Under the pieces are notes generated by a model that ran no database searches, was not told the DNA's origin, and saw only the letters and a program-made list of their open reading frames with translations. DNA of 64,000 bases, taken from the NCBI GenBank assembly GCA_963575745.1, contig CAUYUJ010000159.1, positions 248,001 to 312,000 of the forward strand. The letters run 5' to 3'. Within the stretch, counting starts at the first letter, position 1, and every line of letters starts with the position of its first letter. Of the stretch, positions 5,601 through 61,610 are shown in pieces. The DNA comes from Prorocentrum cordatum. Lineage: Eukaryota. Both the position numbers and the translations under genes were made by a program.

Positions 5601-5637
5601 CTTGAGCAAAAATGGTTTGAACCAAAATTGCTACGGA
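5601..5637 (-). other. Full-length dinoflagellate spliced leader followed by a tandem relict SL
   Basis: Reverse complement is TCCGTAGCAATTTTGGTTCAAA (19/22 match to DCCGTAGCCATTTTGGCTCAAG), then immediately CCATTTTTGCTCAAG (14/15 match to SL nt 8-22). Confidence 0.88.
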
Positions 5638-6224: not shown

Positions 6225-6397
6225 CAGAGAAAAGAAAACTGGCGCTCCGCGCGGATTTCTTGGATCAGCGCTGGACCCCCCTCCATGGCGCGCGGAGCGC
6301 GCCAGGGACGGCGCCGGAGGCGCCGCCAGAGGGGTCCCAGCGCAGATCCGAGAAATCCGTGCGGAGCGCCAAAAGTCTATGGAATTTGTTCTTTTTC
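6225..6397. mobile_element. T-shaped palindromic MITE-like element, family T copy 1
   Basis: ~40-bp inverted arms (6240-6279 / 6331-6371) enclose two GC hairpins: TGGCGCGC-GGA-GCGCGCCA and CGGCGCC-GGA-GGCGCCG. Confidence 0.7.
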
Positions 6398-6730
6398 GAC
6401 CTGCGATCGCCAGGCGCGCGGCGCGCACGAGCTTAGCCGGCAGATGTGGGCAGGCCTCCCGGGCTCGAGCCCGGTGCCCCTAGCGTGCGCGCCGCTCGCG
6501 CGCACCCCGATGCAGCGGAGATTGCCTGCCGCGAGTGCACCACTCAGGGCGCGTTCCTTGCCCGTCCTTTCCCTTTTGTTCGGCCTCCTCTCCCCATCGT
6601 TCCTCCTCCTCCTCCTCGTCCTCCTCCTCCTCGTCCTCCTCCTACTCGTCCTCCTCGTCCTCCTAGGTGGCTCCGCAGCGGGCCGCGCGCCGCCGCAGCA
6701 TTTTGCCCCGCGGCCGCCGCGGCCCGTGCC

Positions 6731-7936
6731 ATTGCAGAGCCCCCAGCGCCGACGGCGCGCAGCCCGAGCAGACCCGCGAGGTCACGCTCCCCTGCCTGGC
6801 ACAGGCGCCTCCGCAGGCGCAGGAGCCAGGCGCGCCAGGATCTCCAGCTGGCGAACGCCCGCCTCCTCCTGAACCTCCACCACGGCAGCATGGCACCGAC
6901 GCAGTGGACGACGTGCAAGCAGTGCAAGATGTGGTGGTGGATATCGCAGATGGAGTCGCGCGACTACTGGTGCTCCTGCGGCTGCCGAGTTGCTAGGCCC
7001 AAAGGAGATATGACGAAGGGCGACGGCAACGCAGGCAAGGGCAAGGGCAAGGGCAAGGATATGGACAAAGACAAGCAGCACCGTACTGACGGTGCCACGG
7101 GCTCCAACCAAAAGAAGGGCTTTGCGCAGATAGCCACGGCCTTGCAGACGATGACGAGCTCCCTGGCCACCCTCCAGTGCGACAACAAAGACGGCATCGC
7201 CAAGCAGCTTACGAGTGTGGCCACGGCACTCCAAGCAGCGGCGAGTTCCCCAGCACAGGTTCCCAAGTCCCGAGCACTACGGTTGGCAGAAGCAGCAAGG
7301 AAACTCGAGGACGCGAACAAAAAGTACAAATGGGCGTTCGATGCAAAGCAGTCGGCGGACGAGAAGGCGAAGAAGGCAACAGAGTGGCTCACGGCCAGCG
7401 CCGACGACGCCCTGAACGCGGAGAAGGAAATAGAGATGATCCAGCAGGAGGGCAAGGAGAAGCCGAAGAGCATATTCGACCAGCTGCTGAACGCAGACAC
7501 GGAGATGATCCAGCCTTCGGAGATCGAGATCGCCGAGGTCGAGGCGCACTTCCAATACGATGAGGACATGGATGAAGAAGGAAAGCGGCAAGTGGAATTA
7601 GCGAAGAAGCAAGTCCTGGAGCATCTACGGCAGACGGCATCAACCTTCAGGGGCCAGCTGAAAGACCACTTGCAGCAGGCGAAAGACAAAGCACAGCAGG
7701 AGCGCGCCACAATCACCCAGGCCTACAAGAAGCGCAAGGCGGGCTCAGGTGAAGTATCGAAGGAGACGCAGGCAGCCCCAGCAGCGGCCCCAGCTCCAGC
7801 AGCAGCGCCCGCACCTGCAGGCGAGCCCGACGACATCCTCGTCGACGGTGCAGACGCCTTCCTGGAGCAGCGCAGGAAGGCGGAGGAGGCAGCTGGCGGC
7901 AGCGGAGGGGCAAGCGCTGGCTCAGGCCAGCACTAG
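6731..7936 (+). CDS. LINE-A ORF1 (first AUG 6890; putative AUU start 6731): Cys Zn-finger, KG repeat, long coiled coil
   Basis: W..CKQC...WCSCG, GKGKGKGK, and heptad-rich Ala/Glu/Lys helices. Intact frame. Confidence 0.75.
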   Translation: MAEPPAPTARSPSRPARSRSPAWHRRLRRRRSQARQDLQLANARLLLNLHHGSMAPTQWTTCKQCKMWWWISQMESRDYWCSCGCRVARPKGDMTKGDGNAGKGKGKGKDMDKDKQHRTDGATGSNQKKGFAQIATALQTMTSSLATLQCDNKDGIAKQLTSVATALQAAASSPAQVPKSRALRLAEAARKLEDANKKYKWAFDAKQSADEKAKKATEWLTASADDALNAEKEIEMIQQEGKEKPKSIFDQLLNADTEMIQPSEIEIAEVEAHFQYDEDMDEEGKRQVELAKKQVLEHLRQTASTFRGQLKDHLQQAKDKAQQERATITQAYKKRKAGSGEVSKETQAAPAAAPAPAAAPAPAGEPDDILVDGADAFLEQRRKAEEAAGGSGGASAGSGQH

Positions 7937-10213
7937 GGACCACAGCGGAGGGGCAGGCGACCCGTTGGCGACGCCGAGCCCCTGGACCGCACGATCTTTT
8001 TCGCCAACATATCAACGTGGGGACCTACGGCCAAGAGTTGGATCCGACGCGACGGGCTTCAGCAATACTATGGTGCTTATGCGCTACAGGAAACACACTT
8101 GGCACATGCACAAATCAATAACGTGGAATACGAGCTGCAGAGATCTGGGTTCCCAGCAGTTTTCACGGAAGCCAGGCAGAGCGAGAAGAACCTGAAGGGG
8201 TCCCACGGTGGCACAGCTGTCATCACCAAGGGCCACCTGAAGGCTACCTCTTTACGCCACAAGGCACGGGCAGACACGACCTCGAGTGTGACTACTCTCC
8301 AAGGGCCGTGCGACATGGATATGATCGACTGGACGCCAGTCACGCTCCACTTGAAGGGCACATCGCTGCTCATCATCTCCCTCTACTTGGACCCGAACGC
8401 CTCCCTCGTCGACGGGGTAAACGACAGGAAGTTGACCTCGCTCGCGGCATTCCTACATGCTACCTCTGTGCCGTGGATCATCTGCGGCGACTTTAATTGC
8501 GAGTTCGACGCACTCGAGGAGACAGGGTGGCCGACGGCACTGGGCGCGACGGGTGTGGTCCAATTGCCAGAGGGCCAGAACACGTCCTTCTTAGGTGACG
8601 CGACCCCCTCGAACATAGGCTACGCCCTGGTCAACCCTGGTGGCCAGAAACTTGTTCGAGGTATACACGCTGTTCACGATGTACCTGGGAAACCACATGT
8701 GGGGCTGGTTATTGCAATACAGGCAGCGGCGCAGGTGAACGAATGCAGGAGATTATGCATGCCGAAAGCATCTCCCCACCCCAAGTTGTCGAAGAAGGCC
8801 AACCCCAACAGCAAAGCAGCAAAGAAGAAGAAGAAGAAAGCAGCGCTACCAGTCCTGGACGAGTCTGACAGCCTCTCCGATGACGAGGCCGCCGAGACCG
8901 TCACGGCGAGATGGGAAGCCCTTGGACCAGACGGTTGTAAGAGAAACCAGACTGGGGCGATCGCTGACGTCGAGACCAGCAGACCCGTCCCAAGACGAGT
9001 CGTCACACAAATGGACAGCGAGGACATAGACCCCTTCGTCGACCTAGATGCGAACCTTCTTCTTAACACGGACGGCAACATACTCATGCCCGAAGATGGC
9101 GAAGGGGCCTGGGACACACCAGAGGCGAAGGATACTACTCAAAAGGCGGAGAGCACGGATGAGACCATGCACGACCCAAATGCAGCCACGACCAACTCGT
9201 CGGACCTGTCGAAGGAAACCCACAGGACCTCCTCACAGACGATGCAGCAGCGGATCGCGGACAAAGCAGCAGGGGTGATCACCGCAATCAGGGGCGATGC
9301 TTGGGAGGTGGCAGCGCAACTGCAAACCTTGGAGTCGACTGACACAGCCCCCGAGCACATAAAGCAGAGTGCAGCATACAAGACCGACCTGAACGGTACT
9401 GAACGACTAGGGCGGCAACACCACCAGTTCATCGGCACGCTGGAGAAATTCTATTGCATGGCTTACAAAGTGGATTGGGCAGGCAGAGCAGTATTTCGCG
9501 GGCGTGGGCACCCTTACGATTACAAGACAGCGCAGCTGACTGGTGAAACAGACTGGTGGAACAGGGCCGACATAGTGCAGAGCACCCTGGTCAAACTACA
9601 AGAACGCGGGCGAGGCCTTCAACAGCAGGAAGCACGCGCCAGCGCAGGACGACGCCTCGTTCGGGAAGGACTGCCACCAGTTGAGAAGGGGGCCTCGCAC
9701 GCTGACATGCACCACCAGCAGATATGGGCAGATAAGATGACAGCGCTGGAACCGATACCACTCAAGCAAGACATGCGGGACAGCAGCAAGCAGTGCAATC
9801 TATGGTTGGCGAAAGCAGAGAAGACCATCGGAGTACGGCATCGGATCAATAAGCCGCCACCCCGACATGAGCATGATATACATACTGAATACGGCACCAT
9901 ATGCAGCCCGAAGGATACGATTGACAAGCGTGGTGTCGATTTTCAAAGGTTATGGGAACGCGAAGATGCACCACATACATCACACGAAGGTTATTTGAAG
10001 GAACTCAGACGAGATGCGCGAGAAGAAAATGAACACGACCCCTGGACCATCGAGGACCTGATCAAGTGCTCGAAAGGCGAACCCGACAAGGGAAAGGGAG
10101 TGGACATGATTTGCACGACGGACCTGAAAAGACTACCCACCGCAGGGAAGCAGACCCTGATCAGCCTCCTCAACCAATGTGAGCGGGACCTTACCTGGCC
10201 GTGGCAGTTGTTA
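7937..10213 (+). pseudogene. LINE-A ORF2 5' part: apurinic-like endonuclease + linker + RT domain 0
   Basis: IFFANIST, LQETH, GGTAVI, ISLYL, IICGDFN, SNIGY, KPH motifs. The frame continues in phase directly after the ORF1 UAG and reads into foreign sequence until 10708. Confidence 0.8.
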
Positions 10214-10292
10214 CCGTCGGCAAACTGGTTCATGAAGGCAGCGGAGGAGAAGACAGAGGAGACTGCGGATGATCGAGATACAGATACCGAGC

Positions 10293-11640
10293 ATGCCCAA
10301 CTGGCCCGCTCCTCGGGGTTGGGCACAAGTGCGACGCAGAGCACCAGTCCAGCATCGCAGACGCACAAACGTCGCCACGATGCTGGATCGGCCCCAGGTG
10401 GCACGCACTGCTCGCCCGCAGCCGAAAGGCCGTCGAGGGTTGAGGGTACCGACCATCTGGGGTGTCAGAACGCGGCTTCTCAGATGCCCACCCGTCGCCA
10501 TGCCGCTGGATCCGCCCCAGGTAGCACGCACTGCTCGCCCACAGCCCAAAGGCCATCGAGGGTAGAGGGTATCGACAACCTGGGGAGCCAGAACGCAACG
10601 ACCAGTCACAGCTCACGAGCGGCAGCGGAGACAATAACCAGAAGAAGGAGAAGCCGCACTCAATTCCCCGACACGAGAGCGCCCCTGCAGCAGGGCATCA
10701 TGATGTAAATACGGGGTTCCCGCGCCATCGAGGAGGCTGAAGCGCCACTCCACCGAGCAGATGAAGACCCGCGGCCTGATTACCCTCCAGAACATGAAGT
10801 TGGAGCAATCAGAGGAGTATCACCCGCGGGCACCCACACATCTGGGAAGATCTTTGCAGAGAGCTCGGGCGCTACGACGCGAACCCGTTCGGCTAACCCG
10901 ACGACGAGAGCAGGCCCGACCCCGAGGGCCCACGCGCCGACACGCGCGGGCCCGCCACCTCCAGTGCAAGCAGAAGCACGACCAGAAGGTGAACCACGGC
11001 TCCGCGCGCCTCCGCAAGACGCGCGCGGAGTTAAGGCGGCCTCAGGGCGCGGCCCTGGACAAGGTACGAATGCCCAACTGGCCCGCCCCTCGGGGTTGGG
11101 CACATGTGCGACTCAGAGTACCAGTACTACGGCCAGACGCAGAACACGAGAGGCGACAGCTGGTACAACCAGCAGAAGGAGAAGCAGACCTCAGCTCCCC
11201 GACACGTACACCCTCCTGCAGCAGGTCAACAAGAAGCAGTTACGAAAAACTCACGCCATCGAGGAGGACGTGGCACCACTCCTCCACGCTGACGAAGACC
11301 CTCGACCTGCTCACCTATCGCACCACGCACCTGAAGCTGGAGAGGGTCGAGGAGGCCCACCCTCGGGCACCCCCACGTCGGGGGCGCCCTCGAAGAGGGC
11401 GCGGGCACTACGACGACGCGGACCACTACGGCAAGCCCGACGGCGAGAGGGAGGCCGACCCCGAGGGCCCACGCGCCCACGCGCGAGGGCCCGCTCCCAC
11501 CTGCTGAGGCCGCAGCTCGCCAAATCGGCATGCCACGGCTCCGCACGCCTCCGCAAGATGCGTGCGGAGAAAGGGCGGCCTCAGGGCGCGGCCCTTGACG
11601 ACGGCTCCGAGCGCCTCCGCCAGACGCGCTCGGAGAAAGG
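10293..11640. repeat. Nested duplications: 123-bp tandem pair, ~540-bp diverged pair, and two copies of a structured 56-bp motif
   Basis: cgtcgcca..gctggatc at ~10370 and ~10493; cgccatcgaggag...gaagaccc at ~10721 and ~11254; atgcccaactggcccgc...gttgggcac at 10293 and 11070. Confidence 0.75.
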
Positions 11641-11732
11641 GCGGGGCCCAGGCCCGCGGCCCTTGAGCGGAGCCCCGCGCGGGGGTGCGCGGGGCCAGAC
11701 TCGCACCTGCGAGAGGCGGAAAGCCCTGAAAG

Positions 11733-19774: not shown

Positions 19775-20930
19775 TTATGTCTCTCATGCTATGTATAGTA
19801 TCATTCTCTCTTTCTCTCTTTCTCTCTCTCCCCATCTCTCTCTCTATATCTCTTATTGTTGTTCCCTCTATCTCTCTCTCTCTCTCTCTCTCTCCCTCTC
19901 TCTTCAACCGCGCGCGCGCTTTTCAACTGCTCGGCGATGGGCTGCTCCAACTTAGCTGTCTTTGTCGCGGCCCGCCTGAGCATGTGACCGATGTTCGCGC
20001 GCTGGGCAAATCCTGGCTCGATCGCAGTCGCAGCTGTTTCGGTCTCGCCCAGCTGCTCGCCCCGGAGGGGTCTCGCTTGAACAAGTTGACACCCGAGCTG
20101 CTTAATCTTCTCTTTGAACATGACTTGTGCCGAAACTTACTTCCCAGCATTGTTGGCAGCCGTCGAGGGCGCAGAATTGCCCCTCCATCCGCCGCTGGCC
20201 ACCAATTCATCAAACCGCTTCTGCAGCGCGTCGAACTTCTGCTTGGTCGGGTCGCGTCCGCCAGCGCCGCGCCAGCGAGGCAGTGCATCGCGCCGAGGAT
20301 GATCGCCCTCAGCAGCTGCCGTGCGCTGACGAGCACGACGAGCAACGCGGGCAGGTGCTTGCTCGCCGCGCCCGGGCGCAATCTTGGAGGCCCAGTTCGC
20401 GTTCCCCCCGCACTGGGCGCACGCCCAGTGGATTGCCCGCGAGGGCCCGTGAACTGCCTCCGCAGAGGCGCGCGAAAGACTGCGCAGCCAAAAAAATGGC
20501 ACGCAGCAGCGACTGCCGCGCTGAAGACTGCCGCTGCGAGCGCTGGCCAAAATGCCTGACCCAGAATGGCTCTTGCCGTTCGGCTGGAGACTTTGCCCAG
20601 GGAGTGAGGAGTGCACCCGCGGAGATCGCGATGCTGGCTTTCCTCCCCCCCCCCTCCTCCTCCTCCTCCTGGAGGAGATGGGTGAGCAGAACGGCGGCGG
20701 AGCTCCTGCCTCCCCGACGCCTCGGACCTGGGGCCGCCGAGGGAGGGGCAGCTGGGGCGGCGCCTGGCCCCCGCCCTGGCCCGAGCAGCGCCCTCGACGG
20801 GCGCTTGGACATGGGACAAACAATCGGGGTGAATTGAAGAGGACGCGCGAGAGGACACAACACCCTTCCGATGCCACACTTCCACAGGAATGCAGAAAAC
20901 AGGGGCCGCAAAACGCAGGACACAAAGGTA
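14800..20930 (-). mobile_element. Heavily degraded full-length LINE (ORF1 Zn-finger/coiled coil ... RT ... Zn-finger/RNase H region)
   Basis: WACAQCGGNANWASK (RanBP2-like, ~20410) plus coiled-coil remnants; GPRPI and FYWGGVKYHE (RT motifs 2/A, 17590-17830); RAWAQGP and CRMFRGTAEH (post-RT, 15290-15530). Many frameshifts. Confidence 0.5.
19683..19903. repeat. (CT)n microsatellite
   Basis: Direct reading. Confidence 0.95.
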
Positions 20931-50944: not shown

Positions 50945-53900
50945 TCAGCCAGCACGGTGCCTGTCCGCCGCGAAGCGGCCCCACCCGTGACCCTCGAAAT
51001 AAGGGTCGTAGGGCACATAGAAATCCTGCACCTGTGGCGGGACCTCGGGGACCTGACCGACTTCCAGCAAATCACAATTACGTACAGTATGAATGAGCGC
51101 CTGGGCAACAATCTTACATAACTGCGAAGGATATTGCTTTGCTGCTGCAGTACGAAAAACGCCATTCCCTCGGACCCCGACAAGCTCTTCGGGATGTGAG
51201 GTGTGGGGGCATTTGCCCCTGCCTGGCAACTGAGCAACTAAATCACGAAACGTCGGCACATTAACGCACAACATGGTAGTTGGTTTCTTAGACCGAGCAC
51301 CACACGTACATTGATCTAAATTCAGAAACCTGATGTCAGCACGAGCTCTAAAACCATACACTGCACCCATCTCGGGGAGGCGCCAGATCGAGGGGAGGTG
51401 AGGGGCCTCCGGTTCAAGAGGATGTTCTAAAATACAGGCAGCTCCTACAGCCGCACAAACGTACACGACCTGAAGCATAGTCTGCAACAAACGATTGCCG
51501 AGCATAACCTGTTTCCATTCAGAGGGCGAGCGGGCCACTAGGCCCCATAAAAATTCCCTGGACCGCAGGATACGAGGCTTCAAACCCCCATTAGGCGGTG
51601 GATTCGCACGGCCCTTGGACCAGGTCTCGCATGGGGGCCCTCCTACAGCTCCGAGGGCCTGCCCTGTCCACAACATGTCTAATATTTTATCGACCGAGGC
51701 TTCTACTGTAAGGTCGCCTCGGTCAGGACTATTGGCAACGTCGATAGATAACATTACCACGGGTACTCTCGCGGCCATCTGAAGCATTTCAAAGTGGGCT
51801 TGCACGTCGTCTGCCCGACGTTGGCCACTGAAAAGATGCAAGGAAAATCGCACTTCTGACGGTGAATTACAGAACACGGCGGGGGCATCTTCATTCTGGT
51901 CCCGTCCGCGCTCGACGCCGTCAGTCGTGGCTCTGGCAATGTTAGCCTCGACTGGGCCTCCCAGCACAGGTCCAATAAAGGCAACTGGCGGTGCGGTAGC
52001 TGCATTCCGACATTCCCCCCGCCCCCGACCAGACCTCGCCGCCCGAGCATCTTCCTTCCGCAGCTCCAGCACTCGCTCAACTGGCATGGGCTTCAAATGG
52101 TGCGCAAGCACCGTGAGGCATCGGCTCGAGCCGAAGCGGAGGTGGCGAAGTAGCCGCCCTCTGGTGTGCCAATCTTGGCCGCAGGCGTGACAACAGGATC
52201 CCAGTGCCAACGCTCCTGCTAGGTCAAACTCTGGATGCGCAAGAGTGCGGTGCCTTCCCCACGCCGCCTTGGTATTAAACACTTCTTCGCACTCTCTGCA
52301 CGGAAACACGACATTGTCAGCAACTTTTTTGAGGACGGGGGGTACGGGGAGATTACCACGCTCGCAAATGGCAACTGGCTTAGATTGCCACACAGCAACC
52401 TCGCAGCTCGCCAAGTGCTCTGCCATGGCGCCTCTCTCCGCCTCTCTACACCAAGAAGTCCATTTTTTGGGGCAATCTCGGGCTACGCCAATCCACCACG
52501 GCAAATCACCGACAGGAGACCACTCGATCGGGATCGTGATCCGATCATACATCCACCAGATGTCTTGCCTCACAAGATACGCCCAACTATTCTTAACACT
52601 GACTAGTGCGTCAAGCATGTGCAACAACCCGTCCGATCCGAACCTCAAGACTTTTTCCAAAAACCGAAGCCTCCTGAGGCGCAGGGTGACGAGAGCAGGG
52701 AGACGGCGGCATCTGAGGTAAACCTCAGGCGTCGACCAATCACACACATCGTCGAGGTCCTGCCTCCGAAGGCCCACGGCAGCCCTGAGAGGGGCCATAA
52801 ACGCAGTTTCCAAGTACTTCTGATTACCTGCATTGAGTGCGGACCATACAGCACCATGGAAGAGCACTCGGCTGTGGCAGAGAGCAGCAGCATACTTGAC
52901 ACGGGTGTCAACAGGTAAATCGTTGCTACGGGTGAAAACCGCCTTCTTCAGTCCCCCGAGTACCCCCAACTGAGTGTGGTGCCTACGCGCAAGCTCCGCA
53001 TTCATAGCACCCGAATCTTGCACCATAGATCCCAAGTGCCTACACACGCTAGCAACAAAAACGGAACGCTGGATCGCAGGGACCCACATCTCCCCCTTAA
53101 ACGCGGCTATCTTCGCTTTAACAACCTTCTTGCCCTCGCCGATAGGGTGGAACAACAGGGTCGATTTGCCCTCCCCGTAGTTGACGACAAACCCCCTCGC
53201 CGTCATCACTTGATGCACAGCTGTTACGACAACTTCGGCCAACTTGCAGCAGTCTCGTGCCTTGGCACATGCCTGCAGCACTGCAAGATCGTCCACATAC
53301 GAAGGTGACCCTATGCGGCTGTCCAACTGCTTGTCGCGGCTGGTGAAGGTGCGTCCTACCCGCGGGCACATGTCTTCAACGTTTAAGTCGATACCTTCTG
53401 CGAAAAACCTCATCCTCAACTCCTCATGCACGGGGGCAAAAGCGAGGGTAAAAAAGAAATCTGCAGGGGGCATGCCCGGCCTTGCTCCCAACGTCGCTTG
53501 TGCCACGGACGTAGCATCTTTTACCTGGAACCAAGTGCTCGAGTTGACATCGGCAACTGCATCTCTCAAGTGCGGGTTACCTACCCTGTCGAACACAGCT
53601 GGCTCTGCCAGCAACTGTCTCATCACCCCTTCAAGAGCTAGCGGCAACTGCAGATTGTCGATGATTTCCTCCAAGTCCTGCTGTGCTGACGGCAAAGCGG
53701 TCAAAAACTCACGAATGACTGTGTGAAACGCTGCTTTTAGGTCCGTGAAAAAAAGCACAGACGTATACCCCAGATGCCTAGCAAGGTCCTGAAAAACCCT
53801 TACTTGAAGCGATGCACCCGCCGTGCCTCTTCCTGAACGGCCCCCGTGCTGATCACAGTCCAACAGGACCGACGCAACGTCATGGATTTTGCGCCGTAGG

Positions 53901-55918
53901 AACTTGTGGTGATGCTTACAGACGTGCACGCCCAACAGGATCTCCCGAAAGTTTTTTAACAACCGAGCATCCCCCTTTTTGTACAAGTCGTGCGCCACCC
54001 CACCCTTCCATGCCAAGGGTTCCCGGCATGCCATCTGTACTTTTAAGACGAGTGGCAGCAGAATCTGTGCACTGAGGTCTGGTGCGGCCTGATACAGATC
54101 ATTGGTGCACAAATCGTGCCCTGCTGCCCTGCGCCGCGCCGCACACTGGATGTCGCGCTGCAGTCCCGCTAAAGAATACAAGTCTGCCAACTCACGATGC
54201 CCGCTCGAGTGGAACTGCTGCTGCTGTTCATTATAGCGGGCCACGAGCTCTGGTACTGTACAAATCTTGGCTCTCTCAGTGGCTGCGAAGTGCTCTAAGA
54301 GCCCTCGTGCCAGGGCCTCACGTGACTCGCACGGCTGGCCTTCCTCGTTCACCCTCATAGGCAACACGTTTTTGTCCCCAGACTTACGCCCACCCCCAAA
54401 GGCAAGCAAACACTTAACTCCAGACCACTCCACACGGCCATCTCCTGAGTTAATAGCATCATTGATTTCAGTGGCCTTTTCTTCCAGGAACCGAGTGCGA
54501 TCACTCCGTAGCTTACGGCGAATCACATACTGCGAGGATCTCAGGAAAGCTACGCAAGCCCCGTGAAACTCCTGAACCCCGTGGACCTGATCGACCCACA
54601 ACCGAGCAGCAAACGTGAGGATGCCTACAGCCGAGTCAAACTCAGGAAGCGCCTCTCGAACAGCTGCCACCTGCGGGTCATCATGTGCCTTGATGAGTGA
54701 CGCAGCAAAAAACAGGATAGGCCTAGCGTCTTCCCCTTTATAGGCACGGAGCACTCCACGCACGGTCCTCCTGAACCTGATACCCCACAAGGTTTCATCC
54801 CGAACATAGCTTTTGGTGGGACCCGGCTTGGTTTTACGAAAGTGACGCTCCGCGCACTCCTGGAAAAACTTCGTGATCATACTGAAATGCTGGTTCACGT
54901 CTACTGACCAATGCACGCGTGGTGCAGACTGCAGGTCGCTTCTAAAAGCCTGCTGCTTCTCAGGATCCCGCATAGCTTCTTTGCCCAAGACGGGGCATGC
55001 CTTTTTTACGTCAAACTGCTCAGCCCATTGCAACTTCACGTATGCTGGGAAGTGATCCTGATGACTGCGCGCAACATCAAAGTCATGCAGCACTCCATGC
55101 TCAATCACATGTCCAAGCCAACACCTCGGCGTGCACACGTAGTCGACACGATGCTTAGCTCCCTGCTTATTGAGCGTGTAAGACGGGGTTGGGGAGGGAC
55201 CGAAGGTGGAGGGGGCGCCCAAGCCATTAGCAGACAACAAACTATTGAAGAGACCCCCGTTACTGTCCTCCTTGGCTGCCTGATGCGACCCGATAGCTTC
55301 TGTTGGATTAGCACCTACTTTAGCATTGGCATCGAGCAAGAGAATGTCCACCCCGAACTTGGCTACGCTGCGCGTGGTCTCCTCCCACCACTGCTTGCGC
55401 AACCTGAGCGGGGCCTCTGGACAGGGACCGTGCCCCACCAGCACGACAGTGCGCCAGCATGGAGCATTGATTTTAACAACTAGCAGGCGCGGGCAGGCCT
55501 GCACCACGATGCAGTGCCTTGGCTTGAGAAAAACAGGTTTCCCCCCCACAGTGGCGTATGGAACCTTGAGGTTGACCCATAACTCGCACCCAAAATTCTT
55601 TCCCTCCTCCGCCCCCGATGCCAGGCAGTAAAATTCGTCGGCAGTGCGACTGCCGCGAGGCGTCCTCGCCTCCTGCACGCCTACGAGCAACGCCGCTGCT
55701 TCCTGAAACTGTTGCCTCAACCATTGGCCTCGCAAGACAGTCCTTTCGCCCTTTACCGTATCCTGCGCTGTCTCAGCATTATACGTGACAAGTATCATGG
55801 AGCGTTGCACCGCCTTTTGAACCTCTTCGTCGAGCTCTGGCTGCAAACGTGTGGCAGGCAAGGCGCGCACATATAAGCCAGCTCCATCGCAACACATGTG
55901 CTGGGGCCGACAAGGCAA
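50945..55918 (-). CDS. LINE-DNMT ORF2 main part: APE + RT + 2 C2H2-like fingers + C5-MTase
   Basis: APE: VTYNAE, VQEAR, LDAN, RVDY, QDHFP. RT: AAGHD, LYKKG, FREI, TDLKAAF, GARPG, YVDDL, HLG. Finger: CRECEEVF...HRTLAH. MTase: LHLFSG (I), SIDV (II), GGPPCETWS (IV, catalytic Cys), LEHP (VI), KKPT (VIII), YP..LC (X). Confidence 0.92.
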   Translation of the reverse strand: MPCRPQHMCCDGAGLYVRALPATRLQPELDEEVQKAVQRSMILVTYNAETAQDTVKGERTVLRGQWLRQQFQEAAALLVGVQEARTPRGSRTADEFYCLASGAEEGKNFGCELWVNLKVPYATVGGKPVFLKPRHCIVVQACPRLLVVKINAPCWRTVVLVGHGPCPEAPLRLRKQWWEETTRSVAKFGVDILLLDANAKVGANPTEAIGSHQAAKEDSNGGLFNSLLSANGLGAPSTFGPSPTPSYTLNKQGAKHRVDYVCTPRCWLGHVIEHGVLHDFDVARSHQDHFPAYVKLQWAEQFDVKKACPVLGKEAMRDPEKQQAFRSDLQSAPRVHWSVDVNQHFSMITKFFQECAERHFRKTKPGPTKSYVRDETLWGIRFRRTVRGVLRAYKGEDARPILFFAASLIKAHDDPQVAAVREALPEFDSAVGILTFAARLWVDQVHGVQEFHGACVAFLRSSQYVIRRKLRSDRTRFLEEKATEINDAINSGDGRVEWSGVKCLLAFGGGRKSGDKNVLPMRVNEEGQPCESREALARGLLEHFAATERAKICTVPELVARYNEQQQQFHSSGHRELADLYSLAGLQRDIQCAARRRAAGHDLCTNDLYQAAPDLSAQILLPLVLKVQMACREPLAWKGGVAHDLYKKGDARLLKNFREILLGVHVCKHHHKFLRRKIHDVASVLLDCDQHGGRSGRGTAGASLQVRVFQDLARHLGYTSVLFFTDLKAAFHTVIREFLTALPSAQQDLEEIIDNLQLPLALEGVMRQLLAEPAVFDRVGNPHLRDAVADVNSSTWFQVKDATSVAQATLGARPGMPPADFFFTLAFAPVHEELRMRFFAEGIDLNVEDMCPRVGRTFTSRDKQLDSRIGSPSYVDDLAVLQACAKARDCCKLAEVVVTAVHQVMTARGFVVNYGEGKSTLLFHPIGEGKKVVKAKIAAFKGEMWVPAIQRSVFVASVCRHLGSMVQDSGAMNAELARRHHTQLGVLGGLKKAVFTRSNDLPVDTRVKYAAALCHSRVLFHGAVWSALNAGNQKYLETAFMAPLRAAVGLRRQDLDDVCDWSTPEVYLRCRRLPALVTLRLRRLRFLEKVLRFGSDGLLHMLDALVSVKNSWAYLVRQDIWWMYDRITIPIEWSPVGDLPWWIGVARDCPKKWTSWCREAERGAMAEHLASCEVAVWQSKPVAICERGNLPVPPVLKKVADNVVFPCRECEEVFNTKAAWGRHRTLAHPEFDLAGALALGSCCHACGQDWHTRGRLLRHLRFGSSRCLTVLAHHLKPMPVERVLELRKEDARAARSGRGRGECRNAATAPPVAFIGPVLGGPVEANIARATTDGVERGRDQNEDAPAVFCNSPSEVRFSLHLFSGQRRADDVQAHFEMLQMAARVPVVMLSIDVANSPDRGDLTVEASVDKILDMLWTGQALGAVGGPPCETWSKGRANPPPNGGLKPRILRSREFLWGLVARSPSEWKQVMLGNRLLQTMLQVVYVCAAVGAACILEHPLEPEAPHLPSIWRLPEMGAVYGFRARADIRFLNLDQCTCGARSKKPTTMLCVNVPTFRDLVAQLPGRGKCPHTSHPEELVGVRGNGVFRTAAAKQYPSQLCKIVAQALIHTVRNCDLLEVGQVPEVPPQVQDFYVPYDPYFEGHGWGRFAADRHRAG

Positions 55919-55925
55919 CGTGAAC

Positions 55926-57905
55926 TCAGCATGGTTCGAAAATGGAATACTGTTGTTTGTCAGCTTCTGGCAAATCGAGCAACCAATTCCATTCCAGCTC
56001 GGGTGCGTGGTAAAGCTGCTGCACTATCCATGGGGGAGTGCAGTCATATACAAAATCACGAGTAGACTTGGCCAGATCGTCGGCCATCTCGTTCCAACAA
56101 TGCTTGTTATGTCCGTAGACATGCAGAATATGCACTGGCACACGGGCGGAAGCAATCTTGTAAATGTGTCTTGCCAGCGCTCCCAGCTTGGGTTCAGCAT
56201 GCGGATACTGCTTGCCGAGCGTTATGGCTATGGCCACTTCGCAATCAGAAAATATCGTGACGGGGTAAAGCTCACACTGCTCGCACTGCTGCATGGTATA
56301 GCTAATCACCCAAATCAACGACCAAATCAAAGCCACCGTCTCGGCGGTGATCGAACTGACATCTTTTTCGAGCTGCATTCCAATCGTGGCACAGACGGTC
56401 CCGGCCAAAAATCCCAAAAACCGAACATCTCCTTCTTCGTCCAAGCAAGTTGCTACCATTGCCCAACCGCTAAGTCCTCGCTCTGCCGTTAGAGAGCCGT
56501 CTGGAAACAAAGCAATGGGACCCATCGGCACCTCGCTAGGCGCAGCCGCCCCCAGCGCGAACTCCGCCTCCGCCTTGAGCTGGACTTCCCCTACCTCCCT
56601 CAAAAGGCAAAGAGGCGGCATCTCACCAATGCATCGAACGATCCGATCGGCACCCGAGAAATCGCATTTGGCATAGCCGTCGATGCCCACCAGCAGCGCC
56701 TCTAAACTTATGACTGTTTTTGGTGTAGTGCAGGCCTGACCCGATCCCCCATCCTCGGGCAAACCATCGCACTCATCAACAACAAACGTGCGAACCTCGG
56801 TCTCTCCCCAAGAGACTCGAGTTCTGCTGCGCTCGGCGGAAGCGGAGGCCGCGCTGGGCATGATGCACGTGCCTGGCGACTCGCAAACGACTTGAAAACT
56901 CGGACTGCCAGCGCTGACCGTAGACAAGCATAGGTCCCAGCCTGTCACGGAGCTCTCGTCCGAAGCGGTGTCGTCTCCCCCCCGCCGCCCAAGCTCGCCC
57001 ACGCAGTCCCACCCACCCATATCGCTATCGGCAGATGCGTCAGACGCGCACGGCGAGCATATGATCCAACCTTGCTGCTCCGCAACTGGGCTCCCAGCAC
57101 TCAGTTGCACGAAGCTCGTGTCTGATGCATCTGCATACAGGTCGTCATCTGTGTCATATTCATGCACGCCCGAAGCCCCAGCGTGCCCAGCCATGTATCC
57201 AAATGACATGCTGGAATCGAGTGAAACGTTATCGTCCGTCATCTGAGTGCCTGCTGCCTCTGCAACAGGCTGCGTCTGTGCTGCCGAGCTGTCTGCTCCC
57301 GCTGACGGTTGAAAGTCATGCGCATCGTTAAAGGCATGCTGCAGTTGCCTGGGCGTGAGCGGATCTTCAAAATGCAGGAAAGACTCCCAGAACAGATTCG
57401 CTCGCGTCCTGGCTGCATCCCCTTCGGCAGTGGTTAAAAGCGACATGCCCGACGCCTCTGCTTGCCACTGATCCCGCGTCATCTGCAGTGCGGCAAGGGC
57501 GTGTACGATATGCTCGTGCCACTCATCAGCGTGCGTGCTATTAACTGTCCTACGCCTCAGACGGTTCAACCTGCTAGTGTACTCGTCACGATCATGCTGT
57601 GCCAACGCCCAAGCACGGTCACATATATCGCGAGCTGCTATCACGCATGCCTGTGCTGACGTGGCAAGCGGCGCAAAGATGGCACTGGTACGAGTTTGCC
57701 ATGAGACCCAGGCAACGCACTCGTCCATCCAACTATCATACGCTACATCAATGCCCTGCATGTGGGCCATGGTCGACCACGGTCGGCTCTGGCCTGCAAG
57801 TGATCTGGCTAGCACGCTGGCTGCGTGCTCGGCTGCACCCATGCCCAGGTGCGCACTACAAGATTTACGTGTTGCAAAAAGGTCGGGATGATATTCCCGC
57901 CGCAA
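55926..57905 (-). CDS. LINE-DNMT ORF2 N-terminal part including RNase H; joined to the APE-RT frame by a one-nucleotide shift near 55947
   Basis: FPDGS...GWA, SITAETVAL, IFSDC, HVYGH..H.WNEMADDLAK. The two frames overlap open over ~55926-56023. Confidence 0.82.
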   Translation of the reverse strand: MRREYHPDLFATRKSCSAHLGMGAAEHAASVLARSLAGQSRPWSTMAHMQGIDVAYDSWMDECVAWVSWQTRTSAIFAPLATSAQACVIAARDICDRAWALAQHDRDEYTSRLNRLRRRTVNSTHADEWHEHIVHALAALQMTRDQWQAEASGMSLLTTAEGDAARTRANLFWESFLHFEDPLTPRQLQHAFNDAHDFQPSAGADSSAAQTQPVAEAAGTQMTDDNVSLDSSMSFGYMAGHAGASGVHEYDTDDDLYADASDTSFVQLSAGSPVAEQQGWIICSPCASDASADSDMGGWDCVGELGRRGGDDTASDESSVTGWDLCLSTVSAGSPSFQVVCESPGTCIMPSAASASAERSRTRVSWGETEVRTFVVDECDGLPEDGGSGQACTTPKTVISLEALLVGIDGYAKCDFSGADRIVRCIGEMPPLCLLREVGEVQLKAEAEFALGAAAPSEVPMGPIALFPDGSLTAERGLSGWAMVATCLDEEGDVRFLGFLAGTVCATIGMQLEKDVSSITAETVALIWSLIWVISYTMQQCEQCELYPVTIFSDCEVAIAITLGKQYPHAEPKLGALARHIYKIASARVPVHILHVYGHNKHCWNEMADDLAKSTRDFVYDCTPPWIVQQLYHAPELEWNWLLDLPEADKQQYSIFEPC

Positions 57906-58065
57906 ACCAGGTGGAGAGGTGCCAGCTGTGGCTCCTCATCATTACCTGCCAACAGAGGCGTCATGGGCACACCTGCCCAGTCAGTAGTGAACGAACTCCT
58001 CGAGGCTGTCGACGGTGCTGCAACATCCCTGCGTGCATCGTCTTCTGGCTCGAGTCTGGTCGAAC

Positions 58066-59898
58066 TCACGCACCTCCGTCTGCTGGAGTCGCTGCTGCCG
58101 CCGCGGCTGCGGTGCGCGCCTCGGGCACCGAGGCCGCCCCTGCTCTCTTCTCCTTTCTCGGCGGAGAAGCCGTCGTTTTGTCCACCTCGATCATCGTCTT
58201 GTCCGCCATCCCGTCGATCCTGCGCACCTCCGCCTGGACTGGCGACTCGTACTCGTGCGTGACACTCTCCGTCGGCGCTGGCAAGTAGGGATCGTCGAGC
58301 TGGGACGCCGTGGTCATTGGAGCCCACGGCTGCGTCGGCTGTGAGCATTGCGGTCTGTGTATCACTGGTGTCGGCTGGCTGCTCTTGCCCTCGGCGTCGC
58401 CTGGCTCCACTGGCGATGTTGGCGAGCAGCTCATCCTTCCACACTTGGACGGGGCCTTCGGTGACGCCATTGCCGTCTTGGGCTGGCCCATGGGCGTCCC
58501 TGGCGCGGCATTCACACCTGCTGGTGTAGGCGGCGACCGCTGCGCTGGCGGCGGCGTCGTCTGTCCAGGCGTAGGCATCCCCCCAATCGGTGTCCTCGGT
58601 GCCGCTGCCACTGGCGTTGCTGGCGATCTCTGCGCAGGCGGCGGTGTTGATTCCACATCCATGGGCTCCGTCTCTGCAGCTACGGCTTGCGCTGGCGGCT
58701 GCGGTGGGAACGCTGGCGGCGGCCTCTGCGGCACTGCTGCCGCTGCCGCTGGCACGGCCTGGGGCGCTGTCCCTCCGCTGGCGCCAGGCGTTGCAACACC
58801 CGACGCCGCCGCGGTAAACCCCATCGCCGACATGACCATGCCCATCTGCCTGTCCTGCTGCTCCATGCGCATCATCATCTGCTGCATCATCATTTCGATC
58901 GGAGACAACTGCTGCTGCGGCTGGAAACCTGGAGGCGGTGGTGGTGGGATGTGCGACGGCGCTGGACATGGTGCCGCACCCGCTGGCACACCAAAACGCC
59001 CAGGCGGCTGCTGCAGCCCTTGCCCATGCTGGGCGGCTGCGGCTGCCTGCATCTCCATCTCCTCTTCTTGGCGCTGCACCTCCAGCTCTGCCAGGTAGTC
59101 GTCCAGCTTGTTCACTTCGTCGCATAGCTCCTCTTCCTGCGTCTGATATGTGGCGATACGGGCTCTGGTATTGCTTAACTTGTCGATCGTGGCCTTCTTC
59201 TTGGCACGCATGGCTTCGATCTGCTGCCATGTTGGCTGGGTCGAACCCATCATGCACTTGAGCACGCTGAGCTTCTCGTCGAGCTTGGTCGCCTCTCCCT
59301 CGTCCGCCGCCCTTCTCGCCGCCATCGCCATCTTCGCATACTCCACCATGCGGTTGCGGGTCGCATCCTGAAGCTGCTTCTGCGCCATGGGCTCCACTGG
59401 CGGTTCGTGGTAGAGCTGGCCGAAGTCTGCGGCCTCGGCCTTTGTCATCGGGACGATCCTGGAGATGTACATTTTCACCTGCTTGTCGACTGGCTGTGAC
59501 TTCGGCTTGCGGCTGGCACTGCGATCCCTTCGATCCCGTCTGTCGCGCTCTGCCCGTGCATCTGCTGCCATCTGATCCCTTTGTACATATTGACGTTGCC
59601 CACGGGCGATCGATGCTGACGGCGGCCGAGCAACCTCCCCTTGGCGCAGACGATTCTGATGATGACCTCCGCACAAGCAACGCTGGTGATTCTTGACGTA
59701 CCGCCCGCATGGGCAGTTCCAGTGTCCGAAGTTTGTCATGGCCGAATGGTGTTGCTGGAGCACCTCTGTCGCACGGAGCACTGCCAACAGGACTCGTGCT
59801 CTTGTTCGCCGTCTTCTCAACCTCTTGTGCCAGGATGCCTCCTTGGCTGTCGCAGACTGGGAATGTGTGGGATTGTGAGATGTATTCTTCGCCGTAAT
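58066..59898 (-). CDS. LINE-DNMT ORF1 (first AUG 59739; putative AUU start 59898): Cys finger, coiled coil, Pro/Ala-rich tail
   Basis: W.CPCG....RCLCG, a long heptad region, and a low-complexity C-terminus. Intact frame. Confidence 0.75.
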   Translation of the reverse strand: MTAKNTSHNPTHSQSATAKEASWHKRLRRRRTRARVLLAVLRATEVLQQHHSAMTNFGHWNCPCGRYVKNHQRCLCGGHHQNRLRQGEVARPPSASIARGQRQYVQRDQMAADARAERDRRDRRDRSASRKPKSQPVDKQVKMYISRIVPMTKAEAADFGQLYHEPPVEPMAQKQLQDATRNRMVEYAKMAMAARRAADEGEATKLDEKLSVLKCMMGSTQPTWQQIEAMRAKKKATIDKLSNTRARIATYQTQEEELCDEVNKLDDYLAELEVQRQEEEMEMQAAAAAQHGQGLQQPPGRFGVPAGAAPCPAPSHIPPPPPPGFQPQQQLSPIEMMMQQMMMRMEQQDRQMGMVMSAMGFTAAASGVATPGASGGTAPQAVPAAAAAVPQRPPPAFPPQPPAQAVAAETEPMDVESTPPPAQRSPATPVAAAPRTPIGGMPTPGQTTPPPAQRSPPTPAGVNAAPGTPMGQPKTAMASPKAPSKCGRMSCSPTSPVEPGDAEGKSSQPTPVIHRPQCSQPTQPWAPMTTASQLDDPYLPAPTESVTHEYESPVQAEVRRIDGMADKTMIEVDKTTASPPRKEKRAGAASVPEARTAAAAAAATPADGGA

Positions 59899-59983
59899 CG
59901 CGCGCGCCCCAGTCACCAGCAATGCAGCTGAAACTGGCCAGGGGCGCGGCGCCTAAGCCCCGAGCTCACAGGCACTTCGGATG

Positions 59984-60001
59984 CCTGAGCCCAGGATGGC
60001 T
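59984..60001 (-). other. Degenerate spliced-leader relic at the LINE-DNMT 5' end
   Basis: Reverse complement AGCCATCCTGGGCTCAGG vs SL AGCCATTTTGGCTCAAG, exactly at the boundary with the flanking microsatellite. Confidence 0.6.
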
Positions 60002-61610
60002 TTGCTCCTGCTCCTGCTCCTGCTCCCGCTCCTCCTCCTCCTCCTCCTCCTCCTCCTCCTCCTCCTCCACGTGTCTATTCCTCCTCCTCCTCCTCTTCCT
60101 CCACCTCTTCCTCCTCCTCTTCTTCCTCATTCTCCTCTTCCTCCTCCTCTTCCTCCTCCTCCGCCTCCTCGTCCTCCCCTCCTCCTTTTCCACCTCCTCC
60201 TCTTTCTCTTCCTCCCCTCTTCCTCCTCCTTCTCCTTCTCCTCCTCTTTCTCCTCCACCTTCCTGTTCCTCTTCTTCGTCCTCCTCCTCCTCCTTCTCCT
60301 CCTCCTCCTACTCCCTCCTTTGCGCGCGCGAACTTGCATCTGTTGACTGCTGTCAAGCAGGAGGGCGGCAGAAAATCGCTAAGAGTATTCCACAACTCGG
60401 ATCTCATGTCCAGTGTGCTACGAGATAAAAGCAACCTACCCTGTGCACGGGCACGTGTTTAAGAGGGAAGGGGATATGGGATTCCAGAGACATGTACTTT
60501 CAACGGACGGCATGTGTGATTCCATGCGCCCAACGGCGTCTTGCGAGACGTAGAGGTCTCCTCTGTGTCCTCCCCGGCGACCAGCTAATGTCCTTTGCTT
60601 CTCCCGCGCATGGCCACAACTCGCAATGCCGCACCACTGGTTTGCCTGACGGTTCGAAGTACTTCCGCACCCGGCGACAAACATGTGCCAAGAAGTTGTC
60701 CCCCTTGACTGCGCAGCGCACACAGGAACAACAATGCACACGCACCCTGCCGCCGCACACACACACACACACACACACATCGCGGCGGGTGCGGCGTGGA
60801 TCCGAGTGCAACCAAGAAAACTGCTGCAGCCATGCTCTCCATCAAGCGATCGATACTTTGCCTGTACCCGTGCTCCTGCCACAGCTCCCCCACGGGCTGG
60901 GGAGCGTGCCGCATATGAGACATCGAATACCAGAGAACATGAGTTCGTGAATGCTCTATCCCCCTGCCGCCCCGAATGGGGACCTCAGCGGGGGCGTGGA
61001 CAAAACGCCGACCGCCGCTCCATGGAACAGAAACACAAATAGGAACTGATGTTTTGCACCAAGTCTGAACTCCCGTAGGCTTTGGAAACCTGATCGGTTC
61101 ACTCTCATCGAGGCCGTGGCCCCATTTGCCCAGGTTCGGCACCCCCACGAGCTCCTCGGGGGAGGACCGCAAATAGCCCTACACTGGAGCGCAAAGTCTT
61201 GGAATCACCCACCGTGCCTGCAGTTTCGGGCCCACAGCTTCGCAACTGTAGTTCCGCGTCCTGCGCAGCCACAGTGAAGGTGAACCGACGCATCGAGACT
61301 CGGCGCCCCGAGCTCCAAGCCTGGCGATCGTCTCACTCGAGGGAAGGTGATGCCGCGCCTCCACGGACGTGTACTCCACGACGCCCATGCCTGGCAACCG
61401 ATCAGAATCCACACTCGCACACGGGTGTAGCAAATGAGTGCCCGCAATCAAACTGCATGTCTGACCCTTTTTTGTCCCGCCCTGAGGCACCGAGGACAGA
61501 CGCAGTACGCGGATGCGAGGCCACGTGTACGGATTGACAAAACTGCAAACAACGAATCCGATATAACATGTTAGCTGGCGTGAACCCTACGCACTGTGTT
61601 CTAGCATACC

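Follow-up and report, generated by a model that had tools for sequence, protein, structure and literature searches.

Can the most conserved part of a retrotransposon protein lie ahead of the first AUG of its open reading frame (ORF), and if it does, at which codon would its translation begin? Two long interspersed nuclear elements (LINEs), here called A and B, raise this question in a 64,000-nucleotide (nt) stretch of Prorocentrum cordatum DNA (the window: assembly GCA_963575745.1, contig CAUYUJ010000159.1, positions 248,001 to 312,000). In each, an Arg- and His-rich leader stands directly upstream of the first ATG of ORF1, and the original prediction, made from the letters of the window, took it for an N-terminal part of ORF1, or else a conserved translational-control peptide, that opens at AUU and that ORF finders would miss. 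The comparisons described below indicate that the leader is very probably translated from a non-AUG start, and that this start is probably ACG, AUU probably being the wrong codon.

Two ORF1s with a leader upstream of the first AUG

Element A reads ARAI-x21-WHRRLRRRRSQARQDLQLANARLLLNLHHGS-M (6722-6892, + strand) and element B reads ARAI-x21-WHKRLRRRRTRARVLLAVLRATEVLQQHHSA-M (59907-59737, − strand). The coordinates and translations of both leaders proved to be as originally claimed, and the two align without gaps, with a WH(R/K)RLRRRR...HH..M stretch directly 5′ of the first ATG in both ORF1s. The features concerned are the following.

6788..6883, + strand: element A, conserved leader core, SPA + WHRRLRRRRSQARQDLQLANARLLLNLHH (from frame-specific identity, alignment and a predicted helix)
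6890..6892, + strand: element A, first AUG (AUG1), context ggcagcATGg, start of the proposed short ORF1 protein (ORF1p)
6893..7003, + strand: element A, Zn-knuckle region (W..C..C...C.C) after AUG1 (from alignments)
59746..59832, − strand: element B, leader core, WHKRLRRRRTRARVLLAVLRATEVLQQHH (from frame-specific identity and alignment)
59737..59739, − strand: element B, AUG1, context tcggccATGa, start of the proposed short ORF1p; ORF1 ends at TGA 58068-58066

From W to M, 16 of the 33 residues are identical between A and B in this frame, versus 3, 4, 5, 9 and 3 in the other five frames, at a nucleotide identity of 42/99 (42%). Identity by codon position is 14/20/8 of 33, and Arg and Leu are kept despite swaps between CGC and AGG or AGA and between CTC and TTG. 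A chance likeness of the two leaders was ruled out by 20,000 shuffles of the alignment columns, in which identical residues averaged 5.3 and never exceeded 12 (p<5e-5 for the observed 16). The homology extends past M to a Zn knuckle (W.C..C...C.CG..VARP), which comes next in both elements; on the other side, the 21 codons between ATT and W are identical only at the random level (19/63 nt).

The claim that no AUG precedes the leader also stood. Neither A, whose frame is open back to 6437, nor B, whose frame is bounded by TAG 59955-59953, has an in-frame ATG upstream of the leader, and the stretch ahead of the ORF1 ATG, 380 nt long in A and 391 nt in B, is free of ATG in every frame. Of all the distances from one ATG to the next in the window, 1.3-1.4% are that long, and both of these stretches include simple repeats. 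No further copies of A or B were found within the window.

The leader in a wider protein family

A two-sequence profile of the A and B leaders, searched against 1.84 billion protein cluster representatives, found 86 of them at E<=1e-3, the best at 4.5e-10; word-based protein searches with the A ORF1 (404 residues) and with the A leader plus Zn knuckle (104 residues) gave no match, and the best score in the ESM Atlas was 0.80, below lead level. The family proteins come from metagenome assemblies and one transcriptome set and carry either no name or that of "hypothetical protein". They have in common a block, [ST]EP[AS]WHRRxRRxRxxARxLLxxxxAxxLLxxHH[SG], that is followed by a Met, a basic or Gly-rich linker and the Zn knuckle, and the consensus of their leaders is EPAWHRRxRRxRxxARxLLRVAxAxxLLxxHH. 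HH stands exactly 27 residues after W in 75 of the 83 proteins that were parsed (of 86), and a Met follows within 17 residues of HH in 64 of the 83. Over 40 sequences the leader is the most conserved part of the protein, with H, R, R, R, H and H invariant. No Pfam family covers it in the 40 members scanned, one of which has a RanBP2-type match (Zn_ribbon_RanBP, 7.4e-9), and the longer members contain Lys/Glu/Gln/Ala-rich segments that, by eye, resemble a coiled coil.

The annotated starts of these proteins show no common position. In the 72 proteins whose predicted start is the sole Met upstream of W, the distance between the two takes 49 different values from 7 to 119, so the gene callers appear to have run each frame back to whatever ATG existed.

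Two members can be described separately. P0011 (607 residues, from the representative library) contains at least six tandem copies of a unit of ~85 residues with a leader-like ARWHRALRRRRSAARKRIRAAK, and looks like a tandem array of the element's 5′ part that the gene caller read through. P0006 (83 residues) is a leader-bearing ORF1 fragment with a Zn knuckle nearest to that of element B. Its source is a transcriptome set assigned to a green alga (Pyramimonas), which may reflect dinoflagellate contamination or hint at a wider family; given that source, the leader region occurs in RNA.

Purifying selection and absence of AUG across lineages

Metagenome contigs were scanned, independently of gene calls, for back-translated EPAWHRRxR. 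At least 27 loci, all with the exact motif, were confirmed among the 599 pattern matches listed, and the leader is present in all 27; an earlier scan with patterns specific to A and B had given 596 pattern matches and no confirmed locus. Together with A and B, the 27 loci (designated by L numbers) were clustered into 24 lineages by the opening 87 nt of the leader, with a threshold of 85% identity; their median pairwise identity is 52%. L001, with 6 codons available upstream, was left out of the ACG count below, and L022, which is cut, out of the count of next ATGs.

An ATG shared by the family upstream of the leader, which the original prediction had named as the finding that would speak against it, was not seen. 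Between the upstream stop or contig end and W, an in-frame ATG occurs in three of the 24 lineages, at the unrelated distances of −69 (L004), −130 (L016) and −41 (L027) codons, and in seven lineages an in-frame stop stands 16-30 codons before W with no ATG between. From W-120 to AUG1, 21 of the 24 lineages have no ATG in any frame (3.9 expected from shuffles), and the total number of ATGs in this interval is 6, versus 46.3 expected. AUG1 itself lies 4-18 codons from HH in 23 of the 24 lineages and 41 codons from it in L004. Of the 15 metagenome lineages in which ORF1 ends inside the locus, 13 keep it open over 363-490 codons counted from W, and in 6 more it is still open at the locus edge.

When the 22 lineages of canonical spacing are compared in every pair over EPA plus W..HH, the three codon positions are identical at rates of 0.60/0.70/0.34, and residue identity is 0.59 in frame versus 0.26 and 0.22 in the shifted frames. 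The ratio of non-synonymous to synonymous change in the leader (dN/dS, method NG86) is 0.08 for L002-L007, 0.15 for L005-L010, 0.03 for L008-L016 and 0.16 for L024-L025, and in two further pairs it is 0.30 (L011-L007) and 0.47 (L005-L012, with 7 differences); a lack of purifying selection, which the original prediction had likewise set against itself, is thus not what these pairs show. Taken as comparative evidence, these values indicate that the 32-codon block EPAWHRRxRRxRxxARxLLxxxxAxxLLxxHH is under purifying selection at the protein level. Reads mapped on A gave family copies in four runs as short contigs; the rows listed show changes within the leader and shortly past AUG1 at codon positions 1, 3, 3, 2, 3 and 3, none of which creates an ATG.

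We considered the possibility that the conservation of the leader is a by-product of the overlapping ORF2 frame described below, and rejected it: the variable sites are third positions of the leader frame, and in L005, L010 and L013 the ORF2 frame opens only 3′ of W.

Least probable among the alternatives is that the leader is not translated now, being a dead relic of an ancestral ORF that did start at AUG, or else a nucleic-acid element that mimics coding. Such a reading could appeal to BLASTP between the stop-to-stop ORF1 frames of A and B, which by itself is weak (18/42 identities, E=0.28 in this single comparison, with only the leader stretch aligned). It is at odds with the dN/dS of 0.03-0.16 between copies whose ORF1 is intact, with third positions that are near saturation while the residues are kept, with the frame specificity of the identity, with the absence of any Rfam match in the window and with the rank of the leader as the most conserved part of the protein in the 40 sequences. 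The core of the original prediction, a non-AUG N-terminal part of ORF1 that ORF finders miss, is borne out in that the leader is AUG-less, conserved in frame and under dN/dS of 0.03-0.16 in four pairs, and the family-wide AUG-less leader is confirmed as a generalization of what had been seen in two copies.

Spliced-leader relics and the AUU codon

The dinoflagellate spliced leader (DinoSL), in the sequence that PMC6050394 gives for it, contains no AUG. Its 3′ part has 4 matches in the window at three or fewer mismatches versus 0.79 expected, which makes the window dinoflagellate-like, and degenerate relics of it lie upstream of both leaders.

6693..6705, + strand: element A, outer DinoSL-like relic CCGCAGCATTTTG, after a (CTC)n repeat, likely the 5′ end region of the copy (spliced-leader alignment score 19, the best upstream match)
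6724..6739, + strand: element A, inner DinoSL-like relic CCGTGCCATTGCAGAG, containing the ATT 6731-6733 of "ARA-I" (score 17)
6752..6754, + strand: element A, in-frame ACG (the family-wide ACG), candidate non-AUG start of a long ORF1p, context gcgccgACGg, −15 codons from W
59984..60001, − strand: element B, outer DinoSL-like relic AGCCATCCTGGGCTCAGG, just after a (GAG)n repeat (score 19)
59953..59955, − strand: element B, TAG that closes the leader frame on its 5′ side, 41 codons from W
59887..59901, − strand: element B, inner spliced-leader-like stretch GCGATTACGGCGAAG, containing ATT 59898-59896 and the adjacent in-frame ACG 59895-59893
59895-59893, − strand: element B, ACG in the context gcgattACGg, with A at −3 and G at +4

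In local alignments to DinoSL, the score of 19 reached by the outer relics of both A and B compares with 0.6% of the 30-nt segments of the window reaching 18. Upstream scores of at least 18 occur in 9 of 22 lineages versus 0 of 22 equal-length controls from the ORF1 body, and L025 has a perfect CCATTTTGGCTCAAG upstream of W. Because near-identical copies (L005 vs L006, L002 vs L003) diverge just 5′ of the relics, the copies are taken to derive from spliced-leader-capped mRNA, and because the outer relics fall in frames 7/8/7 relative to W, they are not coding. The leader, then, contains no AUG, precedes one that is near-universal, and stands behind degenerate spliced-leader relics.

These observations bear on the possibility that the AUG comes from beyond the copy, either in an exon joined upstream by cis-splicing or in a host ORF that reads through into it, with the leader internal to a fusion protein. 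The frame of A is open for 120 codons upstream of W, and gene callers do find upstream ATGs in some copies, as such a fusion would have it; but 13 of the 22 loci parsed have an in-frame stop 15-49 codons before W, the near-identical copies just named do not share what lies 5′ of the relics, the start-Met distances are scattered from 7 to 119, and the DinoSL of PMC6050394 brings no AUG with it. We consider this explanation very unlikely.

An inner relic, of the form (A)GCCAT[TA].., is present in 14 of 23 lineages, between 53 and 81 nt upstream of W. The one in L008 reads exactly AGCCATTTTGG, and the CCGTGCCATT of A (6724-6733) and the GCGATT of B both lie 69 nt before W, as in L002; unitigs of run X1 start exactly at 6731. 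By its alignment, the Ile codon of "ARA-I" is the ATT of this inner spliced-leader relic.

A long isoform that starts at the AUU or AUA of the inner relic, or at another near-cognate codon upstream of ACG, would suit the position of ATT in the two window copies (6731 in A and 59898 in B, each 22 codons before W and with G at −3), as well as L011 and L013, in which the zone described below has no ACG and in-frame ATTs stand at about −10 and −9. It would also suit the finding that 10 of the 14 lineages with GC[CGT]AT have it in frame, except that these lineages are related to one another and the count becomes ~6 of 9 groups (our grouping) once relatives are merged. Other findings are harder to reconcile with it: in-frame stops lie between the inner relic and the leader in L019, L024 and L025, 1-nt indels lie between relic and ACG (L024 vs L025) or just 5′ of ACG (L002 vs L007), the 21 codons from ATT to W are at random identity, and the outer relics keep no common frame. 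Such a start is unlikely for the family, and possible, judging from the alignments, for the minority of lineages without ACG nearby (L011, L013 and L017). The part of the original prediction that had both leaders opening at AUU was accordingly not supported, the ATT being part of a DinoSL-like relic. A translation start inside the spliced leader itself (frame SVAILAQ) was ruled out by the frames of the relics and the stops and 1-nt indels downstream of them.

Elsewhere in the window, two adjacent DinoSL relics at 5601-5631 (−), ACCATTTTTGCTCAAG and GCAATTTTGGTTCAAA, have the mark of a retrocopied gene with its 5′ end there, and further DinoSL matches lie at 20555-20570 (−) and 63537-63552 (+).

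A conserved in-frame ACG

The near-cognate codon that the family conserves is ACG. Counted once per lineage, an in-frame ACG occurs in the zone of codons −15 to −4 before W in 19 of 23 lineages, compared with 4 lineages in each of the two other frames; over 5000 mononucleotide shuffles the number averaged 4.7 and never passed 12, and the ACG rate of the ORF1 body would give 15% of lineages. Other CpG-containing codons have no frame bias in the zone (GCG 11/8/11, TCG 7/7/5). The first zone ACG is mostly in a Kozak-like context, with a purine at −3 in 16 of 19, a purine at +4 in 16 of 19 and RCC ahead in 8 of 19. It often comes in ACC-ACG-ACC-ACG or ACG-ACG runs, with tandem ACG-ACG in L008, L016, L019 and L027 and ACG-ACC-ACG in L002, L007 and L023.

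Alignments of related loci bear on where coding begins. Between L002 and L007, a 1-nt indel immediately 5′ of ACG is followed, up to W, by 6 synonymous versus 2-3 non-synonymous changes; between L024 and L025, two 1-nt indels lie 5′ of ACG, between it and the inner relic; and between L008 and L016, a 1-nt indel at −33 is followed by 42 invariant nt that run from 5 codons before ACG-ACG to W, and then by 13 changes in the leader, most of them synonymous. In all these alignments, indels of lengths other than multiples of three occur only 5′ of ACG, which places the apparent change from non-coding to coding sequence at that codon.

Would the conserved ACG be read as such, or as an AUG? Dinoflagellates edit RNA, and plant organelles create AUG start codons from ACG, so ACG might be turned into AUG by C-to-U editing in some transcripts, the leader then being AUG-initiated on edited mRNA only. 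The identity of the codon, specifically ACG and not the usually stronger CUG or GUG, fits editing; scanning to a near-cognate codon would account just as well for the ACG-ACG tandems and the Kozak-like context, and the lineages with ATT in place of ACG could not be mended by C-to-U changes. We rate editing as a slightly poorer prospect even than the AUU start.

Predicted structure of the leader

The leader was modeled with AlphaFold2 from 23 aligned sequences, with the A segment 6758-7066 first. A single helix was predicted for residues 13-42, from A/W to the second H, with block-mean values of the predicted local distance difference test (pLDDT) of 92-98, against an overall mean of 73.9; a small beta element after the helix was predicted with less confidence. 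The first half of this predicted 30-residue helix is Arg-rich, and the second half is amphipathic, with a hydrophobic stripe. The model is compatible with the earlier suggestion of an RNA-binding or nuclear-targeting helix, and a long isoform may gain RNA binding, nuclear or nucleolar targeting, or both from it.

ORF2 overlaps ORF1 in most lineages

Downstream of the leader, the two window elements have different layouts.

6752..7936, + strand: element A, ORF1 from the candidate ACG to TAG 7934-7936
7937..10708, + strand: element A, ORF2 with APE-type endonuclease (Exo_endo_phos, 2e-5), in the same frame as ORF1 and directly after its TAG
57809..59710, − strand: element B, second ORF in the +2 frame, 633 codons without a stop, overlapping all of ORF1

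Of the 12 loci tested, 11 have an alternative ORF1 frame with 0-1 stops, where 5-15 would be expected from shuffling the codons of that ORF1 (P(0) <=0.007 for each of the 11); the third frame has about the expected number. The frame is stop-free across ORF1 in the window (57809-59710, −), where element B has 0 stops versus 11.9 expected, and in L002, L005, L008, L010, L012, L014, L017, L019 and L021; element A is the exception, with 11 and 5 stops in its alternative frames. The stop-free frame continues for ~1000 codons and holds an APE endonuclease (1.1e-5 in L012, 0.0019 in L002), and it is therefore ORF2. The first ATG to follow AUG1, whatever its frame, is out of frame with ORF1 in 16 of 23 lineages (element B among them), stands 10-142 nt downstream and opens an ORF that passes the ORF1 stop or runs off the locus; L013, L015, L018, L020, L024, L025, L026 and A do not follow this pattern. 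In element B this second AUG (AUG2) is 59710-59708, 29 nt after AUG1, and opens the 633-codon ORF to 57809. Since ORF2 opens at the next ATG after that of ORF1, ORF1 is nested inside ORF2. Over the overlapped part, the ORF2 products of L010 and L012 have no detectable similarity to one another, and from residue 394-418, just past the end of ORF1, their similarity is 40-50%.

The overlapping layout that leaky scanning would use is thus seen in element B and 15 other lineages and not in A. There, ORF2 directly follows the TAG in the frame of ORF1, no ATG occurs in the next 81 nt (27 codons, 7937-8017), and the first five ATGs past AUG1 all keep to frame 0. This arrangement (TAG GGA CCA ..., 7934-8020, +) reflects either readthrough of the stop codon or a fused ORF that has been interrupted in this copy; the frame has its second stop at 10706-10708. 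The leader frame of L024 is open for at least 1048 codons and looks like a fused form.

As to the class of the elements, the APE-type endonuclease was found in A (Exo_endo_phos, 2e-5) and not in B, and reverse transcriptase gave a weak match in B (RVT_1, 0.056) and none in A; B also has RNase_H (1e-5), and the metagenome loci end before the reverse transcriptase region. Neither ORF1 has a Pfam family match. The label LINE-DNMT that had been given to element B did not hold up, there being no DNMT match in the other ORFs scanned in the window elements and the loci. Element B has two more long ORFs within 50945-57935 (−), of 669 and 1692 codons, each overlapping the previous one by ~100 nt in another frame; its RNase H lies upstream of the sole weak reverse transcriptase match, and a C2H2 finger is present.

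A model for translation of the element

The model that we think probable has a minor long ORF1p isoform, initiated at ACG and carrying the 30-residue Arg-rich helix, alongside a short isoform initiated at AUG1. Scanning ribosomes would start at low efficiency at the conserved in-frame ACG 4-15 codons before W, which is often ACC-ACG or ACG-ACG with purines at −3 and +4 (window sites 6752 in A and 59895 in B). Most would pass it by and initiate at AUG1 (A, 6890; B, 59739), yielding the short ORF1p, and the whole 5′ region would be kept free of AUG in all frames so that this scheme can work. In most lineages, including B, further leakage might reach AUG2 and with it ORF2, whose different frame is kept stop-free over the length of ORF1.

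Taken one step further, three products would come from one spliced-leader-capped, AUG-poor mRNA by ordered leaky scanning: the long ORF1p from ACG, the short ORF1p from AUG1 and ORF2 from AUG2, with ORF1 nested in ORF2. The AUG-free 5′ region and the AUG2/ORF2 pattern are what such an ordered cascade would require, and it would explain why the upstream start is never AUG. The N-terminal 330-400 codons of ORF2 would then be overprinted on the whole of ORF1 and constrained only to stay open. We regard this three-product cascade as evenly poised between right and wrong; a bolder variant would have ACG edited to AUG as a switch.

Several points weigh against ACG initiation and leaky scanning. The case for translation is built from the comparison of sequences. 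The ACGs of the window are atypical, both being farther from W than is usual in the family: that of A is at −15 with C at −3 (and G at +4), and that of B, at −21, is outside the −15 to −4 zone, so that B joins L011, L013 and L017 as the four of 23 lineages with no zone ACG. Thr codons are enriched in the zone (55 of 276 codons, with ACC 15 and ACG 28), and ACG could thus belong to a Thr-rich N-terminus that is started elsewhere. CUG is usually the better near-cognate codon, as a general rule that is not specific to dinoflagellates. No consistently stable RNA structure was found 3′ of ACG (mean z −0.59, with 8 of 19 below −1, by mononucleotide shuffles). AUG1 is mostly in a strong context, with a purine at −3 in 20 of 24 (our count), which limits leakage to AUG2. 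Finally, the lineages share ancestry and their counts are not independent events, the shuffles preserve mononucleotide content only, the loci are those with an exact EPAWHRRxR (at least 27 confirmed among the 599 matches listed), and their dinoflagellate origin is deduced from the spliced-leader relics.

Comparison with known systems

The Sendai virus P/C mRNA is translated by leaky scanning from an ACG for C′, then an AUG for P and then an AUG for C. The element resembles it in having a weak ACG, then an AUG, then an AUG in an overlapping frame on one capped mRNA with no other AUGs between. It differs in that ACG and the first AUG share a frame, which would give two isoforms of one protein, in that the overlap spans a whole ORF1 of 360-590 codons, and in that the carrier is a cellular retrotransposon whose arrangement is read from sequence. 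In murine leukemia virus (MLV), glyco-Gag is a CUG-initiated N-terminal extension of Gag. There, as proposed here, a nucleic-acid-binding structural protein of a retroelement exists in two forms, the longer from an in-frame near-cognate codon upstream of AUG; the codon here would be ACG and not CUG, the extension is a predicted short Arg-rich helix and not a signal-anchor or glycosylated domain, and the host and element class are different.

Among host genes, the high-molecular-weight isoforms of FGF2 start at CUG and carry an Arg-rich nuclear-targeting extension, and yeast ALA1 has two successive in-frame ACG starts. The leader resembles the former in that a near-cognate start would add a basic segment, for which a targeting role is here a suggestion, and the latter in its redundant tandem ACG codons; unlike these single host genes, it is a trait of a multi-lineage family of mobile elements. 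Among non-LTR (non-long-terminal-repeat) elements, R2 and L1Tc have an ORF that lacks an AUG and is served by a ribozyme like that of hepatitis delta virus. The family shares with them a conserved N-terminal part of an ORF that precedes any AUG, and differs in having no Rfam ribozyme match, a spliced-leader relic as its 5′ end and a specific conserved near-cognate codon.

Retrocopies that bear DinoSL relicts (Slamovits and Keeling 2008, as described in PMC6050394) likewise have degenerate relics ~50-150 nt upstream of the coding region, sometimes two in series, and in both cases, on that description, the relics mark copies that were reverse-transcribed from trans-spliced mRNA; unlike those copies of host genes, the ones described here would be copies of a retrotransposon's own mRNA. 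SymbioLINE and SymbioLINE-Dnmt of Symbiodinium are described as having conserved untranslated regions and a DNMT in ORF1 (de Mendoza et al. 2018, PMC5890265), unlike the scanned ORFs of the window elements, in which no DNMT was found; the passages on these elements in PMC5890265 make no mention of an upstream leader, of a start other than AUG or of an ORF2 lying over ORF1. A review of non-LTR translation (PMC3894237) names non-AUG initiation and leaky scanning, in the parts that deal with them, only as viral strategies. Full-text searches of the open literature on dinoflagellate and LINE retrotransposons, non-AUG starts and leaky scanning, with subscription journals and the supplements of PMC5890265 outside their scope, found no description of such a leader or layout.

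What the arrangement may mean follows from where the leader lies. The most conserved part of ORF1p in a widespread dinoflagellate retrotransposon family is outside any AUG-started ORF, and standard annotation therefore truncates the protein or extends it to arbitrary upstream ATGs. The family offers a natural, multi-lineage case for start-codon choice in dinoflagellates, where initiation on spliced-leader mRNAs is almost unstudied, and its conserved ACG and AUG-free 5′ region provide precise sites for the study of initiation. An ORF2 at the second AUG that overlaps ORF1 in most lineages touches two matters: the long-standing problem of LINE ORF2 translation, and the adaptation of retroelements to hosts that trans-splice and whose genomes such elements helped to inflate. 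If the cascade is real, it would be a LINE architecture with ORF1 nested in ORF2, and a solution to ORF2 translation where trans-splicing makes mRNAs monocistronic.

Repeats in and around the elements

The 3′ part of element A (10293-11666, +) contains internal direct repeats of 72-86% identity, in units of ~120 and ~470 nt. About 300 nt 5′ of A, 6240-6382 is a very abundant short repeat, with a summed contig depth of ~77,000 in run X1 and ~10,000 in run X3, and many contigs join both of its strands, in an inverted-repeat structure. Each element is preceded, on its own strand, by a triplet repeat, (CTC/CCT)n at 6580-6665 (+) before A and (GAG/GGA)n at 60010-60300 (−) before B; these are complementary motifs, which could reflect a target preference or chance.

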